From IMG/VR virus record IMGVR_UViG_3300050821_000498: a stretch of 20,000 bases of DNA; one strand, written 5' to 3'. The stretch comes from an uncultured virus (IMG/VR IMGVR_UViG_3300050821_000498) (Duplodnaviria; Heunggongvirae; Uroviricota; Caudoviricetes). Made by a program: the position numbers and the translations under genes. Under the pieces are notes generated by a model. It saw only the letters and a program-made list of their open reading frames with translations, did not search any database and was not told the DNA's origin. This document shows, piece by piece, positions 3,995 to 19,152 of the stretch. The first letter of the stretch is position 1. Each line of letters opens with the position of its first letter.

Positions 3995-4204
3995 ATGGAT
4001 ATTTTTGTACTTGTACTATATTTAGGACTTGCAGCGGTGACTACGCCACCTAGCCATTCCTTTGCCTTTGTGTCTGAACATAAAACATTAGTTAGCTGTG
4101 CAACGGCTATAGAGAAAGTTAAAGCTGACCCAGATGTGAGTGATAAAATCAAAGCTAATATTGGGTGTTTTAGGCTTCATATCGAAGCTACGAAAGATGC
4201 TTAA
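3995..4204 (+). CDS. hypothetical exported or membrane-anchored protein, 69 aa
   Basis: AGGAG SD; hydrophobic N-terminus; two Cys. Confidence 0.75.
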   Translation: MDIFVLVLYLGLAAVTTPPSHSFAFVSEHKTLVSCATAIEKVKADPDVSDKIKANIGCFRLHIEATKDA

Positions 4205-9439: not shown

Positions 9440-9786
9440 TGAGTAAATTTAAAACAGGAGATATTGTTATTTGTGTAAATGCTCTAGATACAGCGGGTGA
9501 CTTAACTGTAGGGCAGCTTTATAAAATAAATAGTGTTACAGATGGTTATGTCATACTTGAAAACAGCCCGTATGATGGCTGTTGGCGAATGGCCTCTAGG
9601 TTTGAACTGTACAACCGTGCAAAAATTTCTGTAGGAGTGGAAGGCATACCAAAAGAACGTATAATCATTTTTACACAAACAGATGGTAGTATTAGCCAGA
9701 CAATCAAAATAGAGGGCCAGAATGTTATACCACTGTTGTCCAAGAAATTTTGCAAGGAGTTCCAGAAACTATGGCCACACATTTGA
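9436..9786 (+). CDS. hypothetical protein, 116 aa, with SH3-like N-terminus (FKTGDIVICV...LTVGQLY.I...RFEL)
   Basis: GGGAGG SD; coupled to upstream gene. Confidence 0.75.
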   Translation: MMSKFKTGDIVICVNALDTAGDLTVGQLYKINSVTDGYVILENSPYDGCWRMASRFELYNRAKISVGVEGIPKERIIIFTQTDGSISQTIKIEGQNVIPLLSKKFCKEFQKLWPHI

Positions 9787-9871
9787 AGATGGGAGAGTCT
9801 GTAGATAAAACTGTCTGGGATAGTAAACATTTGATTATCAGTGAAGTACCAACTTCTAAAAAGGATTAAGA

Positions 9872-10057
9872 ATGAACAAACAACAAGCAAACGAAGCTAT
9901 CGCTAATTATATTAACGAAGCATATAAACTCGTTAACGAAGCCCAGAAAATTGCCAGAGATTTTGAATTATCATTTGATTGGGATTTGGCGTATGGTATG
10001 GGCGGTTATTACGATGGACGTGATGAGTCTTGGAATCCGTCTAGTGAAAGCTGCTAA
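9872..10057 (+). CDS. small protein, 61 aa, paralog 1, C-terminus WNPSSESC
   Basis: AAGGA SD; amphipathic helix then SFDWDLAYGMGGYY and terminal Cys. Confidence 0.85.
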   Translation: MNKQQANEAIANYINEAYKLVNEAQKIARDFELSFDWDLAYGMGGYYDGRDESWNPSSESC

Positions 10058-10260
10058 TTAATTTAAGGGGAATAAAATGAGCCAACAAGATACAATAGAG
10101 GCAATTGCAACAATGATTAGTACAGCTAAAGATATTCTTAAGTCTGCAAAGAAAATGTCAGATGATAATGGGTTATGTTTTAATATACAAGATTTGTATG
10201 AATCTGTTACTAATGAATACGTTGATTGGTATAGCTCATCAATGGATTGCTAATTAATTT
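10052..10260 (+). repeat. 13-bp direct repeat TGCTAATTAATTT (10052-10064 and 10248-10260) spanning Cys codon, stop and downstream bases
   Basis: Identical sequence at the 3' ends of paralogs 1 and 2. Confidence 0.8.
10077..10253 (+). CDS. small protein, 58 aa, paralog 2, C-terminus WYSSSMDC, not in ORF track
   Basis: MSQQDTIEAIATMISTAKDILKSAKKMSDDNGLCFNIQDLYESVTNEYVDWYSSSMDC; AAGGGG SD. Confidence 0.85.
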   Translation: MSQQDTIEAIATMISTAKDILKSAKKMSDDNGLCFNIQDLYESVTNEYVDWYSSSMDC

Positions 10261-10285
10261 GATAATTTAAATGAAAGGAAGTATA

Positions 10286-10705
10286 ATGGATGATGTAATT
10301 ATTGAAGGAATCAGTATCAATGAATTGAAAGCCACAAAAGCTAAGATTCAACAAGGAGCTAACAAAGTTATTTCAGATAGTATTGAGCAAGCCACTAAAG
10401 TGTTTCATGAAATGATGGAAGCTGAGTCTTACGATGAAGCTGAAAAACTAGCACAACAAGCTTATGATTTGCTAGAGACAGCTAATGTCGTTTCAGGAGT
10501 TAGTGGTGTGAAATTCAGCTTGCCATATTACGAAGAATATGGTCAATACGAAAGTGATGAAGTTATGTCGCATATTCTTGAAAACAACGAAGAAAACGAG
10601 AATGTTGAATCTGATTGGCAAAATAAAAATAATATCTATCGCTTGCAATCGTTGTTGGAAAATATGGAGAGTCAAGCTTGCAATTGGTATTCGAGTAAAT
10701 GTTAA
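10286..10705 (+). CDS. acidic helical protein, about 139 aa, paralog 3, C-terminus WYSSKC
   Basis: AAAGGA SD fits ATG 10286 better than 10271; helical region aligns by eye with paralogs 1 and 2. Confidence 0.85.
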   Translation: MDDVIIEGISINELKATKAKIQQGANKVISDSIEQATKVFHEMMEAESYDEAEKLAQQAYDLLETANVVSGVSGVKFSLPYYEEYGQYESDEVMSHILENNEENENVESDWQNKNNIYRLQSLLENMESQACNWYSSKC

Positions 10706-10722
10706 TATAAGAAAGGGATAAA

Positions 10723-11625
10723 ATGATTGTATTGATTGGAAGCGTAGCTACAAATTACCACATTAGAGGGTTTCGTAAAGAACCTGGAGATATGGATATT
10801 TTGTGTGATTATGATACAGCAATGAAGTTTAAAGAGGCTCATGATATTAAAATCTGCTATCCAATCAATTCAGGAAAAACCATTTACATGAAGAATTCTG
10901 ATGGCTTGATTATAGAGGCTTCAATCACTTGGCCTGATAGTATGGAAGAAAGGCTTTATAAGTTTATTGAGAGTCAATCTGATAATATTTGGGTGAATGG
11001 TTTTACTGTTCCTTCTTTAGATGTTTTGTATTTGCTGAAGATGAGTCACCGCTATAAAAAAGACAGTCCTGTGTTTAAAAAGACATTGGATGACATTCTC
11101 ACTTTGCGCAAGCATGGTGCTAAGATACGTGATGAGCATATGGAATTTTTCAAAGAGCGCGAGAAAGACACATACAATTACTCTTTGCCAAAACTTAATC
11201 AAAGCAAAGCTGATTTCTTTGATAATAGTAATAACATTTACACCCTGGATCACGATTGCATTCATGAAGCTATTGCTCTAGGAAATAGGCCAGCATATCT
11301 TGAATTTAAACCTGATGAAAATGAAGTATATACAAGTAAGGCTTTATTCTTTGCGCAGCCTAAACAAATACAATTGAATGCGGCTTATGAAGAAATCTGC
11401 GTATTGTCTCTAGAAAGATCAATCCATCCATTCCCTGATGTTGATCGTAAGTGGGCATTTGATAAAGCTCAGATGAAATTGAGTACAAGTATTAGTTCAG
11501 GATGGTTTCGTGAATTCTGTTGGGAACATTATTATGAAATACAAACCATGTATAATGTGGAATATGTTGACAGGTTTTACGAGGCTCTATATGATGGGCG
11601 TATTAAACCATTTAAAGGATACTAG
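10723..11625 (+). CDS. putative nucleotidyltransferase (Pol-beta superfamily N-terminus) with C-terminal HDxxH helical domain, 300 aa
   Basis: LIGS...PGDMDI (hGS-x-DxD) motif; HDCIHE, EEICVLSLER and SGWFREF motifs; AAGGGA SD. Confidence 0.7.
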   Translation: MIVLIGSVATNYHIRGFRKEPGDMDILCDYDTAMKFKEAHDIKICYPINSGKTIYMKNSDGLIIEASITWPDSMEERLYKFIESQSDNIWVNGFTVPSLDVLYLLKMSHRYKKDSPVFKKTLDDILTLRKHGAKIRDEHMEFFKEREKDTYNYSLPKLNQSKADFFDNSNNIYTLDHDCIHEAIALGNRPAYLEFKPDENEVYTSKALFFAQPKQIQLNAAYEEICVLSLERSIHPFPDVDRKWAFDKAQMKLSTSISSGWFREFCWEHYYEIQTMYNVEYVDRFYEALYDGRIKPFKGY

Positions 11626-13526: not shown

Positions 13527-14228
13527 TTGAAACTCGCAAATATAGAAGTTAAATATATTGATCATATGGGAACGGATTTGTCTGTAGTGAATGCTGCTAG
13601 GACATCTTTCGATAAAGCTAGTGAGTGGGATTGGCACGAGGATGCAAAGTTAAGTGATCCAGAAACTGGTTATATCCATCATGTACCTGTCTTGAGTCAT
13701 GCGGATACTAAACTTATCAATTACTTAGCAAAATATAAACATAAAAGTCCATTCAATCATACTTTTATTTCTTTGCACATTAAAGCACCTATTTATGTAG
13801 CTCGCCAACTTGTCAAACATAAATTTATGCCTTGGAATGAGGTAAGTCGTAGATATGTGGATAGTGAGCCTGAATTTTATATTCCAGAGATATATCGTCA
13901 AGCAGCAGAAAATGTAAAACAAGGAAGTTCATCAGAAGATTCCGGCTATGACAGGCATACTGCAATAGAACATTCTTGGATGTGTCTTGATGAATATAAT
14001 GCACGATTGGCTCATGGTGTTTGCGCTGAGCAAGCTCGTGAATGCTTGCCATTAAATACACATACGGAATGGTATTGGTCTGGAACTCTCGGGGCATTTG
14101 CAGACATGTTGATTCTCCGGCTAGACAATCACACACAATATGAGACACGTCTAGTTGCAGAACAAGCAAGAGATATTATTTTACCATTGTTTCCCGTTTC
14201 ACTAAAAGCATTGCTTGAACATAAATAA
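13527..14228 (+). CDS. thyX: FAD-dependent thymidylate synthase ThyX
   Basis: DHMGTDLSVVNAARTSF, HKSPFNH, APIYVARQLVKHK...NEVSRRY, EQARECLP, HTQYETR; TTG start with AGGAGG SD. Confidence 0.95.
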   Translation: MKLANIEVKYIDHMGTDLSVVNAARTSFDKASEWDWHEDAKLSDPETGYIHHVPVLSHADTKLINYLAKYKHKSPFNHTFISLHIKAPIYVARQLVKHKFMPWNEVSRRYVDSEPEFYIPEIYRQAAENVKQGSSSEDSGYDRHTAIEHSWMCLDEYNARLAHGVCAEQARECLPLNTHTEWYWSGTLGAFADMLILRLDNHTQYETRLVAEQARDIILPLFPVSLKALLEHK

Positions 14229-16005: not shown

Positions 16006-16208
16006 GCGAATCAAAACAACGTGGGACATATGAACAACGCAAAGCTGAAGGAATTTTAAAACGTAAGCAAGCTGAAGAAGATTTGGCGAAGGCTAAGGAG
16101 GAGTTTATGAAAGCTGTTGAAGAGAGCTTGCCTAGCTACAAACAGACGCAGAGACATAATATTAGAGTGCTGGCTGAGATTGCTAAGGGATTGAGTGAGG
16201 AGCTATAA
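16002..16208 (+). CDS. hypothetical helical protein, 68 aa (MSESKQRGTYEQRK)
   Basis: AAGGGG SD; coupled to neighbours. Confidence 0.8.
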   Translation: MSESKQRGTYEQRKAEGILKRKQAEEDLAKAKEEFMKAVEESLPSYKQTQRHNIRVLAEIAKGLSEEL

Positions 16209-17359
16209 TGCAAATTGAATGGGATAAAGAAGATAATATTATAAAAGTTGGAGAGGCTACATTCAATCGCTATGTCCAATATAAAGATTCTAAAGCATGG
16301 GCTTTATATATCCTCTCTAAGCATCAAATTTATCCAGCACCATATCCTAAGAAAACACAGAATAAAGAGATTGCAGATGCTTTGAAAGGCAGTCGTACAC
16401 AACTATTTGCACACTTTAATGCTTTGCAAAAGAAAGTGTTTATAGCGCCTGTCTATGAGATTATTAAGAAGATTGCATATAGTCGTAATATGTGGGCAGC
16501 TAATAATATTGCTAGAATTAATCAGAATAAAGATATTCTCTTGCAAGCTTACAAAGATAAGCAATACAATATCCTTCCTATTCTCAATTATACAGGTGAA
16601 TCTCCTAAAGATTTGAAAGCAAAATATAAGAATGTTTGGAAGAATGTAACAAGCAATAGTTTGAGAAAGAATATTGCTATTGCCAAGGTTATTTCTACTA
16701 GAAGTGAAGAGGAAACAATTAAAATATTCGCCTCTAATCTTCCTTCTACTTTGCTTAGGATGAAAGAGATAAATTATCTTAATGTAGATGCCATACAATA
16801 TTTAGCCAATAATTTCAAGGGTGAATGGAATAATAAACATAAGATGATAACTGAAGGACGTTATTTTCAAGAAATGGCTAAGATGGCTAAAGACCAAGGT
16901 AAGGATGTCTCTACCAAGTGGAGTGTTAGGCGCGTTAAAGAGGAGCATGATAAACTTGTTGTGACGGCTAATAAGAAGAAATATTCTACAGTTCCTTTTA
17001 TTCATCTTAAAGATTTTAAAGTGAAGCAAATTGAGCATGAAGGTTATGTGGCTACGTTGTTAGAGAGTCCTTATGATATTTATGCTGAAGGAAGTTATAT
17101 GGGGCATTGTGTAGGTATGTATTCTAGTTATGTTGCATCCGATAATTACTTAGTGTATAGTGTTACAAAGAATGGTGAACGTAGTAGCACTATTGGAATT
17201 AATATCACAAAACATGAAAGAGATGTAGAAACAGTAACAGGAACAGAAGCTATTAAAACTAATCACTACACATTGCAACAGCAATATGGTAGGTTTAATA
17301 AAACTGTCACAGATGTGCATGAGAAGGAAATTGCGAATTTGTTGGTTAGTCAACTATAG
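16208..17359 (+). CDS. PcfJ-like domain protein, 383 aa
   Basis: C-terminal EHDKL...EGSYMGHCVGMY...YSV...RSSTIGI...QQYGRFN matches the PcfJ pattern (EG..M.HCV..Y; Q..G..N); GAGGAG SD. Confidence 0.8.
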   Translation: MQIEWDKEDNIIKVGEATFNRYVQYKDSKAWALYILSKHQIYPAPYPKKTQNKEIADALKGSRTQLFAHFNALQKKVFIAPVYEIIKKIAYSRNMWAANNIARINQNKDILLQAYKDKQYNILPILNYTGESPKDLKAKYKNVWKNVTSNSLRKNIAIAKVISTRSEEETIKIFASNLPSTLLRMKEINYLNVDAIQYLANNFKGEWNNKHKMITEGRYFQEMAKMAKDQGKDVSTKWSVRRVKEEHDKLVVTANKKKYSTVPFIHLKDFKVKQIEHEGYVATLLESPYDIYAEGSYMGHCVGMYSSYVASDNYLVYSVTKNGERSSTIGINITKHERDVETVTGTEAIKTNHYTLQQQYGRFNKTVTDVHEKEIANLLVSQL

Positions 17360-17367
17360 GAGGTAAT

Positions 17368-19152
17368 TTGAATCTAGCTGAGAAATATAATATTGACCTC
17401 AGTAAAGACCATAAGACAGGCTGTCCAAGATGTATCAGAAATGGCAGAGATAAGTCTAGGAATAATCTTCATGTTTATTCTGATACGCAGTCGGCATATT
17501 GTTGGAGTTGTTCTTGGACAATTGCTAGTAAAGAGCACCGAGAGCTAATGGGATGGGATGATGAGGAAGATGACTTAGAGGAGGAAGAAGTGACAACTAG
17601 AGAAAAGATAACACCGGAAGAGAACGAACGTATTAAGAAAATTACCACACCAGACGGCAAAGGTTACAGGGGAATTCGTAAAGATATAAATATATTTTTT
17701 GGAGTCAGATATGAATGTGATCCTACTAATGGGGAACCAATAAAGCAATATGTACCTACAACAATTGGCGGGGAGTTGTGCGGCTACCGGACGAGACTTT
17801 TTCCAAAAGACTTCGGAAATCCTATAGGCCAAGTCGGTAAGGAGGTAGATTTCGTAGGGGAGTTCAGGTTTAAAAATCACACTCGCACATTGCTAATTGT
17901 TGGGGGTGAAATTAAGATGTTAGCAGCATATCAGATTTTGCTAGATGACCAAAAAGCTCGTGATAAAATGAATTTTGAAACAGTTGCAGTGGTATGCTCT
18001 ACACTAGGAGAAGCAGGAGCAGCTAAGCAAGCTCAATCAAGGTATGAATTTTGCAATCAATTTTCTAAAATTATAATCGCAATGGATTCAGACGAAGCTG
18101 GAGAGATTGCAGCAGAAAAATTAGCAAAAGTGCTTCCTAGAGGTAAAGTATTTATTATGAAGATGCGCTATAAAGACGCAGATACATATATAGATAAAGG
18201 CAAGGAAAAAGAATTTGTTCAAGATTATTGGAATTCTAAACCTTGGTCGCCAGCAGGTTTATACACAGCCGATCAACTATATGATGCAGCATTAGCACAT
18301 GTGAGCATGGAACGGCTACCTATGCCTAGCTTTCTTCCAAAATTAAATTACAAGCTTGGAGGGGGTATTCCTAAAGGTGGTTGTATTGTATTAATAGCGG
18401 CTGCGTCATCTATTGGTAAAACTACAGTGCTAAATCAATGCCTCGTAGAGTGGATTATGAATGATAATGAGAGATTCGGTGTAGTCTCTCTCGAAGCCAC
18501 AGCAGGCGACTATGCAGCTAATTTGATATCTTACTATACTAAGACACGCTATATGGGTATTGAAAGTAGAGATGAGCGAATTTCCATGATGTCTAGTGAG
18601 CAGACTAAAGAGGCCGCTAGAGAGCTTTTTACTCGTGAAGATGGCTCTCCAAGGTTTGTTTTGTGTGATGACCGTGGAGAAAAATTAGATGTGATGCAGA
18701 AGAAAATTGAAGAGATGGTTAAGGCTATGGGCTGTACAGCTATACTTATAGATGTTACAAGTGATCTTCTAAGTGGCCTTACAATTGCTGAACAAGAATT
18801 GCACATGGACTGGCAGAAGAAGTTCACTAAAGAGACAGGTGTAACGTTAATTAACGTAGTGCACATTAGAAAGGCTGCAAGCGGACAAAAAGAAGGTAGT
18901 AGGGGGGCTGCTGTAAGTGATGAATCTATCATGGGGACTTCCACTTTGTATAAAAGCGCATCCATAATTATCGGCCTTCAAAGAGATAAAATGGCAACAG
19001 AAGACTTTGTAAGAAATACTACAGATGTTATGCTACTTAAAAATCGAGCTAATGCCGATACAGGCCCAGCAGGCCAATTGTATTATGACAAAGCTACACA
19101 TAGGTTACATGACATGGACAAATGGCTACAAGATAACCCACAAACTTTTTAA
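17368..19152 (+). CDS. bifunctional DNA primase-helicase (T7 gp4-like: Zn finger, TOPRIM, SF4 helicase)
   Basis: CPRC...CWSC Zn finger; YRGIR; MDSDEAG (DxD); Walker A AASSIGKTT; VVSLE; ILID; VVHIRK; LKNR..DTG; TTG start with GGAGG SD. Confidence 0.93.
   Translation: MNLAEKYNIDLSKDHKTGCPRCIRNGRDKSRNNLHVYSDTQSAYCWSCSWTIASKEHRELMGWDDEEDDLEEEEVTTREKITPEENERIKKITTPDGKGYRGIRKDINIFFGVRYECDPTNGEPIKQYVPTTIGGELCGYRTRLFPKDFGNPIGQVGKEVDFVGEFRFKNHTRTLLIVGGEIKMLAAYQILLDDQKARDKMNFETVAVVCSTLGEAGAAKQAQSRYEFCNQFSKIIIAMDSDEAGEIAAEKLAKVLPRGKVFIMKMRYKDADTYIDKGKEKEFVQDYWNSKPWSPAGLYTADQLYDAALAHVSMERLPMPSFLPKLNYKLGGGIPKGGCIVLIAAASSIGKTTVLNQCLVEWIMNDNERFGVVSLEATAGDYAANLISYYTKTRYMGIESRDERISMMSSEQTKEAARELFTREDGSPRFVLCDDRGEKLDVMQKKIEEMVKAMGCTAILIDVTSDLLSGLTIAEQELHMDWQKKFTKETGVTLINVVHIRKAASGQKEGSRGAAVSDESIMGTSTLYKSASIIIGLQRDKMATEDFVRNTTDVMLLKNRANADTGPAGQLYYDKATHRLHDMDKWLQDNPQTF

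Follow-up and report, generated by a model that had tools for sequence, protein, structure and literature searches.

Nucleotidyltransferases (NTases) with a dedicated protein partner encoded next to them are of a known kind. In the HepT/MntA system, the Pol-beta-type NTase MntA adenylylates HepT, the product of the adjoining gene, on a hydroxyl side chain (excerpts of PMC7641770). The NTase MenT1 is blocked by MenA1, a helical protein of 68 residues, and 15 of the 21 identified menA1 genes lie upstream of an open reading frame (ORF) resembling menT (excerpts of PMC10435456). MenA1 obstructs the active site in two toxin protomers; the part of it that functions is the N-terminal helix, whereas its 17 C-terminal residues lack order in the crystal (excerpts of PMC10435456 and PMC11375011). 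Further enzymes of similar fold, ANT(2'')-Ia, LnuA and LinB, are resistance enzymes that work without protein partners. Tandem small genes ahead of one enzyme gene are also found in the arrays of ribosomally synthesised and post-translationally modified peptides (RiPPs), in which, for example, several precursor peptides are served by a single lanthipeptide synthetase. Here we describe a locus in a 20,000-nucleotide stretch of an uncultured virus of the Caudoviricetes (IMG/VR record IMGVR_UViG_3300050821_000498), the whole of which will be referred to as the window. It carries three genes for small acidic proteins, named s1, s2 and s3, directly upstream of a gene encoding a 300-residue enzyme of predicted NTase type. 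The window is a piece of a 42-kb viral contig with an estimated completeness of 38%, and no near-identical phage record was found for the region by megablast against phage records.

The original prediction, made from the letters of the window, had proposed that the three consecutive small genes end exactly on a cysteine within a common tail, and that the next gene downstream encodes an enzyme with a Pol-beta motif and an HDxxH/EE...ER helical domain. All of these ORFs were found in the expected places on the plus strand (Table 1), separated by gaps of 19, 32 and 17 nt in the order s1-s2-s3-enzyme and preceded by Shine-Dalgarno sequences. The longest ORF of s3 (10271-10705) would encode 144 residues; probably, however, translation starts at ATG 10286, as this start is preceded by the Shine-Dalgarno sequence AAAGGAAG at a distance of 4 nt and agrees with the N-termini of the homologs. 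The pattern W..S.{1,3}C$ was matched by exactly three of the 169 mechanical ORFs of the window (at least 30 residues, both strands), all three being adjacent, compared to a mean of 0.025 ORFs after shuffling the window 200 times. The three proteins are strongly acidic, with net charges of -6 (s1), -6 (s2) and -16 (s3) and isoelectric points (pI) of approximately 4.1-4.3. In s1, an N-terminal amphipathic helix is followed by the strand LSFDW, the motif YGMGGYY and the 8-residue tail. Scanning yielded 33 promoter-like sites compared to 33.2 expected and no terminators, a result which on operon structure informs only of the absence of terminators. Three identical contigs of a soil metatranscriptome from a different study cover 9698-10063 and 10974-11404, spanning s1 and some of the enzyme gene; they give no more than a hint of expression, as carry-over of DNA may account for them.

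The combination of enzyme and tail proteins extends far beyond the window. The locus set comprised the best 80 of 213 enzyme relatives in viral sequences, 76 of them with at least 1.5 kb of upstream sequence. Applying the strict tail pattern W.{1,2}SS.{0,3}C$, tail ORFs were detected in 156 of 1,627 cases among the upstream ORFs on the same strand, but only in 4 of 1,553 downstream and in none of 4,043 on the opposite strand. At least one upstream tail ORF was present in 71 of the 76 loci (72 with a looser pattern), the number per locus ranging from zero (5 loci) to five (1 locus). Two of the four loci lacking a match to the looser pattern hold the near variants ...WNDSTC and ...WSSSNCY. For the converse test, the segment AYGMGG[YTR][YF] was used alone as seed, which is independent of both the enzyme and the tail. 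The enzyme was encoded on the same strand not more than about 2.3 kb downstream in all 28 loci obtained and the tail end was present in 27 of them; 16 of the 28 contigs were absent from the enzyme-seeded set. The pairing of enzyme and tail proteins is not due to chance and holds in both directions, so the co-occurrence on which the original prediction depended was indeed observed.

De novo clustering of 2,570 ORFs from these loci again brought out two families, the enzyme (80 of 80 loci) and a small family of 171 ORFs in 70 loci, 161 of which carry the tail; the next cluster was restricted to 20 loci. The other neighbours seen in the window accompany the enzyme in only 0-18 of the 80 loci. There is no third conserved gene. 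Two to four upstream tail ORFs are present in the Ralstonia phage RsoM2USA (344 kb), Phapecoctavirus ETEC-TG, Otagovirus REC1, Acinetobacter phage Lazarus and Dhakavirus JS10, four in another Dhakavirus and five in a Klebsiella phage. Whole-genome scans revealed both families in JS10, ETEC-TG, REC1 and RsoM2USA, the stronger PHROG 899 matches lying close upstream of the enzyme gene, whereas T4 contains neither family. Thus far, the hosts of the module include cultured coliphages (JS10 and other Dhakavirus phages, Phapecoctavirus, and T-even relatives of the BASEL type) as well as phages of Acinetobacter, Klebsiella, Pseudomonas and Ralstonia. Seven enzyme loci were obtained from 185,579 cellular species genomes, all on metagenome-bin contigs, and six of the seven show upstream tail ORFs. 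Taken together, the two genes form a conserved module that belongs to large lytic phages with Gram-negative hosts. In it, one to five diversified small acidic proteins are encoded directly upstream of the enzyme on the same strand.

The three small proteins of the window had been regarded as paralogs. All of them match PHROG 899 by way of the C-terminal part of the profile, s2 and s3 weakly, and an alignment of the s1-type with the s3-type profile covers helix and strand (hhalign probability 61%, E 8e-5); pairwise BLASTP similarity between s1 and s2, however, was not detected. They are best described as distant paralogs, their paralogy being shown only in part. Common to all three are a core of helix and strand, a segment rich in Tyr (YGMGGxY for the s1 type and LPYYxxY for the s3 type) and the tail. 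The s1-type profile retrieved 1,097 cluster representatives (50% identity) with E ≤ 1e-3, and 593 when the limit was E ≤ 1e-10. Among the best 150 representatives, 146 end in G-W-x-[SAP]-S-S-x-x-C, three carry one residue beyond the Cys and one has no terminal Cys. As this profile had been made from motif-selected rows, the tail was counted again on members derived from BLAST clustering alone. A terminal Cys was present in 144 of 151 unique members, and 142 of these 144 have a Ser at position W+3; W and C are separated by 4 residues in 46 members and by 6 in 95. Five of the seven members without a terminal Cys contain the motif followed by 1-3 extra residues. BLASTP with s2 led to 17 ORFs from related loci, of which 16 carry the strict motif, and all twelve BLASTP-picked homologs of the s3 type end in W-x-x-S-x-C, with W139, S142 and C144 invariant (numbering of the 144-residue form). 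The universal tail of the predicted proteins is W-x-x-S-x(1 or 3)-Cys-COOH. The homologs thus conserve the terminal motif, as the original prediction required, but the form first proposed, W-x-[SP]-S-x(1-3)-Cys, is better written in this way. The Ser positions of the tail are encoded by all six possible codons and Cys by its two, and each of the three stop codons occurs; selection therefore acts on the protein and not on an RNA element.

Several variants of the tail were encountered. Some members show an internal second copy of the motif together with YG, of the type ...DW(L/Q)xSSCYGE... followed by ...W(Y/H)xSSC and the stop codon (Table 1), from which it follows that the motif can be duplicated and is not always terminal. 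In locus L119, a small ORF ending at 4183 encodes an s1-type homolog with the end ...WSPSSESY, Tyr replacing the terminal Cys, and the enzyme gene is still found downstream. Among 26 long tail proteins, one exceeded a curated Pfam cut-off (WYL_2), matches to TolA_bind_tri and DegT_DnrJ_EryC1 remaining below theirs. The protein concerned is a 190-residue tail ORF of locus L064 (2458-3027) with an Sm-like barrel of the WYL_2 family covering residues 30-101 (E 3.9e-8), possibly a genuine fusion or else an upstream gene merged through a mis-called start. A DNA pattern scan for W.PSS.SC-TAA gave seven matches, a small sample consisting of two family members with the enzyme nearby and five chance matches in short frames. 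Annotation searches with the small proteins were largely negative. Neither HEPN nor any other Pfam family was found above cut-off for s1, s2 or s3. PADLOC returned nothing for s1 and s2, and for s3 a weak JetB match below threshold (E 0.035), and the only NCBIfam match among the module genes was CheX on s3, equally weak and below threshold (E 0.032). Profiles of PDB sequences matched s1 to designed helices only, a word-seeded search with s1 recovered s1 itself, and the ESM Atlas contained no named neighbours of the module proteins.

The enzyme consists of two Pfam domains, DUF7277 (PF23942; residues 3-79, E 2.9e-9, 38.0 bits compared to a curated cut-off of 27) and DUF7275 (PF23940; residues 101-280, E 5e-58, 196.6 bits, cut-off 27), and matches PHROG 2141 (E 2.8e-86), all three families being of unknown function. 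PF23940 is present in all 120 listed homologs and PF23942 in nearly all. A tblastn search identified relatives in 700 of 50,697 phage records (Escherichia 260, Acinetobacter 68, Aeromonas 58, Pseudomonas 51, and others), all with less than 60% identity, and the 381 homolog clusters in a large protein collection are unnamed or "hypothetical". The motifs noted in the original prediction are conserved, together with further positions: G6, S7, D23, D25, E65, K106, S108, H109, K120, T121, R146, H177, D178, H181, E223, E224, E231, R232, K252, S256 and R263 were each found in 111-120 of the 120 homologs. Within this set, G6 (113/120), S7 (111/120) and D23 and D25 (117/120 each) form the NTase motif, the remainder being gaps in N-terminally short sequences, and H177-D178-x-x-H181, E223-E224 and E231-R232 are the conserved motifs of the helical domain, DUF7275.

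An AlphaFold2 model of the enzyme was obtained with a predicted local distance difference test score (pLDDT) of 91.5 and a predicted template modelling score (pTM) of 0.85. Foldseek against the PDB placed MenT1 first (E 9e-5), followed by a fungal NTase-like protein, JHP933, CCA/A-adding enzymes, LinB, TglT and ANT(2''). The model is confident and supports the fold of a Pol-beta NTase, in agreement with the sequence motif; with G6, S7, D23, D25 and the DUF7275 residues kept, the enzyme looks catalytically competent. The DUF7275 domain, in which numerous His, Asp, Glu, Lys and Arg residues are invariant, gave no match in the fold searches. Its interpretation as an HD phosphohydrolase domain was considered as well and received no support from these searches. 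At E ≤ 1 the enzyme matched neither the AbiEii/DUF1814 (MenT family) model, nor the minimal NTase family, nor the Pfam model of the RNA-repair NTase RlaP, and RNA ligase was not among the conserved neighbours. A profile search of PDB sequences with the enzyme alignment returned nothing at E ≤ 10. Fusions exceeding 525 residues were not found, which is weak evidence. In the viral predicted-structure library BFVD, relatives of the enzyme are unnamed or called "DUF7275 domain-containing". The same library holds one-domain forms in Stenotrophomonas phage IME13 (DUF7275 only, 168 residues) and Pseudomonas phage KIL2 (DUF7277 only, 117 residues), and DUF7275-containing proteins of 508 and 571 residues in the giant eukaryotic viruses Sylvanvirus and Satyrvirus (TMq 0.75 and 0.71). 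In the public record of Escherichia phage vB_EcoM_005, the enzyme and the tail proteins bear names such as 'prohead assembly scaffold protein' and 'major capsid protein', which have evidently been mis-transferred.

Compared to the systems described above, the locus resembles each in part. With HepT/MntA it shares a Pol-beta-type NTase gene adjoining that of a protein partner; the Pfam matches characteristic of that system (minimal NTase for the enzyme, HEPN for the partners) are nevertheless lacking here at E ≤ 1, the partners are acidic proteins of 58-220 residues with a terminal-Cys tail in one to five copies, and the module resides in lytic phages instead of cellular toxin-antitoxin loci. 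Like MenA1-MenT1, the module places the gene of a small helical protein upstream of the NTase gene. However, the enzyme has no sequence-family match to MenT1/AbiEii and possesses a much larger helical domain (DUF7275) without a fold match. Moreover, the active-site residues reported for MenT1, T39, D41, K137 and D152 (excerpts of PMC10435456), differ from the classical G-S...D-x-D found here in a comparison of the listed residues. The similarity to ANT(2'')-Ia, LnuA and LinB is limited to the N-terminal half of the enzyme model (residues 1-151), and nothing here points to an antibiotic substrate. The parallels to RiPP precursors and to ubiquitin-like conjugation suggested by the original prediction hold for the layout only. 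Tandem small genes ahead of one enzyme gene and a C-terminal Ser and Cys are indeed reminiscent of RiPP arrays, but here the tail is constant and the body variable, and the proteins comprise 58-220 residues and have no recognisable leaders.

In total, 118 enzymes of the tail clade were compared with 13 tail-less enzymes. G6, D23, D25, K106, S108, H109, K120, D124, H177, D178, H181, E223, E224, E231, R232 and S256 are common to both clades and might represent the core chemistry. Y30, the P47-G51 insertion, S115, T121, R146, T150, Y151, P156, R263, Y277 and F285 are invariant in the tail clade only; R146, T150, Y151 and R263, for instance, are kept in all 118 tail-clade enzymes and replaced in the 13 others. 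This second set, with two Arg and several aromatic residues, is a candidate docking site for a peptide with a free carboxylate end. As to the third catalytic carboxylate that Pol-beta NTases have on a later strand, the candidate E65 was found in 120 of 120 tail-clade homologs and is aligned to R, K, G and others in the 13 tail-less enzymes, where the alignment is perhaps unreliable.

These observations suggest a model in which the flexible tail is the handle recognised by the enzyme. Its carboxylate, thiol and Trp would be held by R146, T150, Y151, R263 and the P47-G51 insertion, and the Ser at W+3 would be presented to the D23/D25 metal site, where it would take a nucleoside monophosphate (NMP) from a nucleoside triphosphate (O-nucleotidylylation). 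The variable acidic bodies might then be effectors on host functions that are armed or switched by the enzyme. Docking of the tail in the enzyme, with nucleotidylylation of the invariant Ser, is the reading we tentatively prefer, although we rate it at clearly less than an even chance. It is favoured since NTases act on hydroxyls and the hydroxyl of this Ser is invariant, since one enzyme serves several diverse proteins with only the tail in common, and since a Pol-beta NTase that adenylylates its neighbour has a precedent in MntA and HepT. An extended version, in which nucleotidylylation of the tail Ser is followed by attack of the Cys, either with NMP leaving or directly, and creates a C-terminal thioether or nucleotide-linked warhead on a set of effectors against host functions or defences, seems to us improbable.

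Several points weigh against the tail as substrate. No upstream tail ORF is present in Gordonia phage ClubL (27% identity) or Vibrio phage RYC (31%), and none of the 12 viral loci of the actinophage branch represented by ClubL contains one; these tail-less enzymes weaken the case for the small proteins as sole or ancestral substrate. The conserved pocket may serve another, universal substrate, because the catalytic and HD..H/EE..ER residues are common to both branches. Among solved structures, those closest to the enzyme belong to NTases with tRNA 3' ends (MenT) or small molecules (ANT, Lnu) as substrates, and not proteins, and structural relatives of the enzyme occur in giant eukaryotic viruses. 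Furthermore, both partners are acidic overall (pI 5.8 for the enzyme compared to ~4.1-4.3 for the small proteins), and modification of the Ser alone leaves the strict terminal Cys unexplained.

The main alternative is that the small proteins are antitoxin-like inhibitors or regulators of an enzyme that has as its substrate either RNA, such as tRNA 3' ends, or some small molecule. The tail would plug or tune the active site and thereby time or restrain the enzyme during infection. We consider this possible but doubtful, and somewhat behind nucleotidylylation of the tail. The block of MenT1 by the upstream-encoded MenA1 (excerpts of PMC10435456) and the identical gene order speak for it, as does the occurrence of the enzyme in other branches without tail proteins while core pocket residues are retained. 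Nevertheless, MenA1 acts through its N-terminal helix with its C-terminal end disordered, whereas here the tail is the most conserved part, and an AbiEii/DUF1814 match is lacking, as stated above. One to five diversified paralogs per genome would be odd for a stoichiometric inhibitor, and a pseudosubstrate plug would have no need of the Ser hydroxyl, which is nevertheless kept in 142 of 144 members.

Alternatively, the small proteins might be specificity adaptors, each variable body binding a distinct host target and the constant tail recruiting the enzyme to nucleotidylylate that target. Divergent bodies on an invariant tail, a copy number varying from 0 to 5 across phages and the residues invariant in the tail clade only, which could form a docking site, are all consistent with such a role. 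We still regard it as unlikely, as known targets and informative domain fusions are lacking and the bodies are short, with ~45 structured residues for the s1 type, the only one of 26 long members above a Pfam cut-off being the WYL_2 protein with its perhaps mis-called start.

Less probable again is a RiPP-like maturation, in which an O-linked NMP on the tail Ser would act as leaving group and elimination followed by attack of the Cys would close a C-terminal thioether ring, or in which another cross-link between Ser, Cys and Trp would be formed. The tandem precursor-like genes before a single enzyme, the invariant Ser and Cys with two fixed W-C spacings, and the richness of DUF7275 in invariant His, Asp, Glu, Lys and Arg residues in a domain of no known fold would fit. 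However, a lanthipeptide dehydratase or cyclase (LanB/C, LanM, LanKC/L) was not detected by Pfam in those window genes that were scanned, no dehydratase, cyclase, protease, transporter or other exporter is conserved across the loci, features of signal or leader cleavage were not seen, and a ring would not demand Cys as the last residue. To our knowledge, no NTase is used for the formation of RiPP-like rings. Finally, that the small genes have no functional link to the enzyme and are merely a family that moves or expands and happens to occupy an insertion hot spot upstream of its gene, as the location of the module in variable accessory regions of T4-like phages otherwise lacking conserved synteny might indicate, is very hard to reconcile with adjacency, order and strand being kept in Straboviridae, Phapecoctavirus, Otagovirus and the 344-kb Ralstonia phage while all other neighbours differ, with the 28 of 28 loci of the converse test, with the joint absence of both families from T4, and with enzyme residues that are invariant in the tail clade only.

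Table 1. Coordinates of the module, of neighbouring genes in the window and of related small proteins with a duplicated motif
Feature	Position (nt)	Strand	Remarks
s1, 61-aa acidic small protein	9872-10057	+	tail WNPSSESC at 10031-10054; PHROG 899, E 3e-11
s2, 58-aa acidic small protein	10077-10253	+	tail WYSSSMDC at 10227-10250; PHROG 899, E 5e-3
s3, 139-aa acidic small protein (144 aa if ATG 10271)	10286-10705	+	tail WYSSKC at 10685-10702; PHROG 899, E 4e-3
Enzyme, 300 aa, DUF7277+DUF7275	10723-11625	+	predicted Pol-beta-type NTase domain, then helical domain; G6-S7 at 10738-10743, D23-x-D25 at 10789-10797
Hydrolase_2 (cell-wall hydrolase), 133 aa	8549-8950	+	hydrophobic N-terminus
HD_4/RelA-SpoT-like phosphohydrolase, 179 aa	12283-12822	+	Pfam E 2.5e-7; PHROG 990, E 6e-27
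ThyX thymidylate synthase	13527-14228	+	
PcfJ-like protein	16208-17359	+	
Toprim+DnaB-type primase-helicase	17368-19152	+	
Acb2/Tad1-hairpin protein, 120 aa	19184-19546	+	Pfam E 1.6e-8 (above cut-off)
Members with internal motif copy (other loci)	L006 1201-1425; L003 1871-2131; L124 835-1059; L066 3383-3622; L058 3735-3980		

The surroundings of the module on the plus strand are genes of early or metabolic type (Table 1), and judged by these predicted products the module is placed within a block of nucleotide metabolism and replication. The gene for the cell-wall hydrolase, which lies within this early-type block, is present in 18 of the 80 enzyme loci. The HD_4 phosphohydrolase is encoded two genes after the enzyme and is not a part of the module, because it is kept together with the enzyme in just 4 of the 80 loci. 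The 120-residue protein with the Acb2/Tad1 hairpin domain, encoded 7.5 kb 3' of the module, is likely a cyclic-nucleotide sponge of the type directed against the cyclic oligonucleotide-based antiphage signalling system (CBASS) or Thoeris.

Both parts of the module are represented in databases solely as DUFs and PHROGs of unknown function. A description of the module was not found in the literature searched with DUF7275, DUF7277 and the PHROG and Pfam accessions or, by title and abstract, in broader searches; a survey of jumbo phages mentions, in the excerpts available, RlaP and CCA-adding NTases only (PMC7824862). Whereas the principle of an NTase with a neighbour-encoded partner is familiar, the partner family and its sequence signature are new; known signatures do not include a W-x-x-S-x(1/3)-Cys tail that is strictly C-terminal and linked to one enzyme. 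The module is common, with the enzyme in 700 phage records and 1,097 s1-type representatives, yet has no described function in the literature searched, and its presence in cultured coliphages makes direct testing in E. coli possible. Broad protein modification by phage enzymes currently attracts interest, one example being the T7 kinase (excerpts of PMC13645617). Should the tail prove to be the site of a modification or a handle for docking, a new enzyme-client logic in phages and a family of diversified small effectors would be defined, and both Pfam DUFs and both PHROGs would receive a role.

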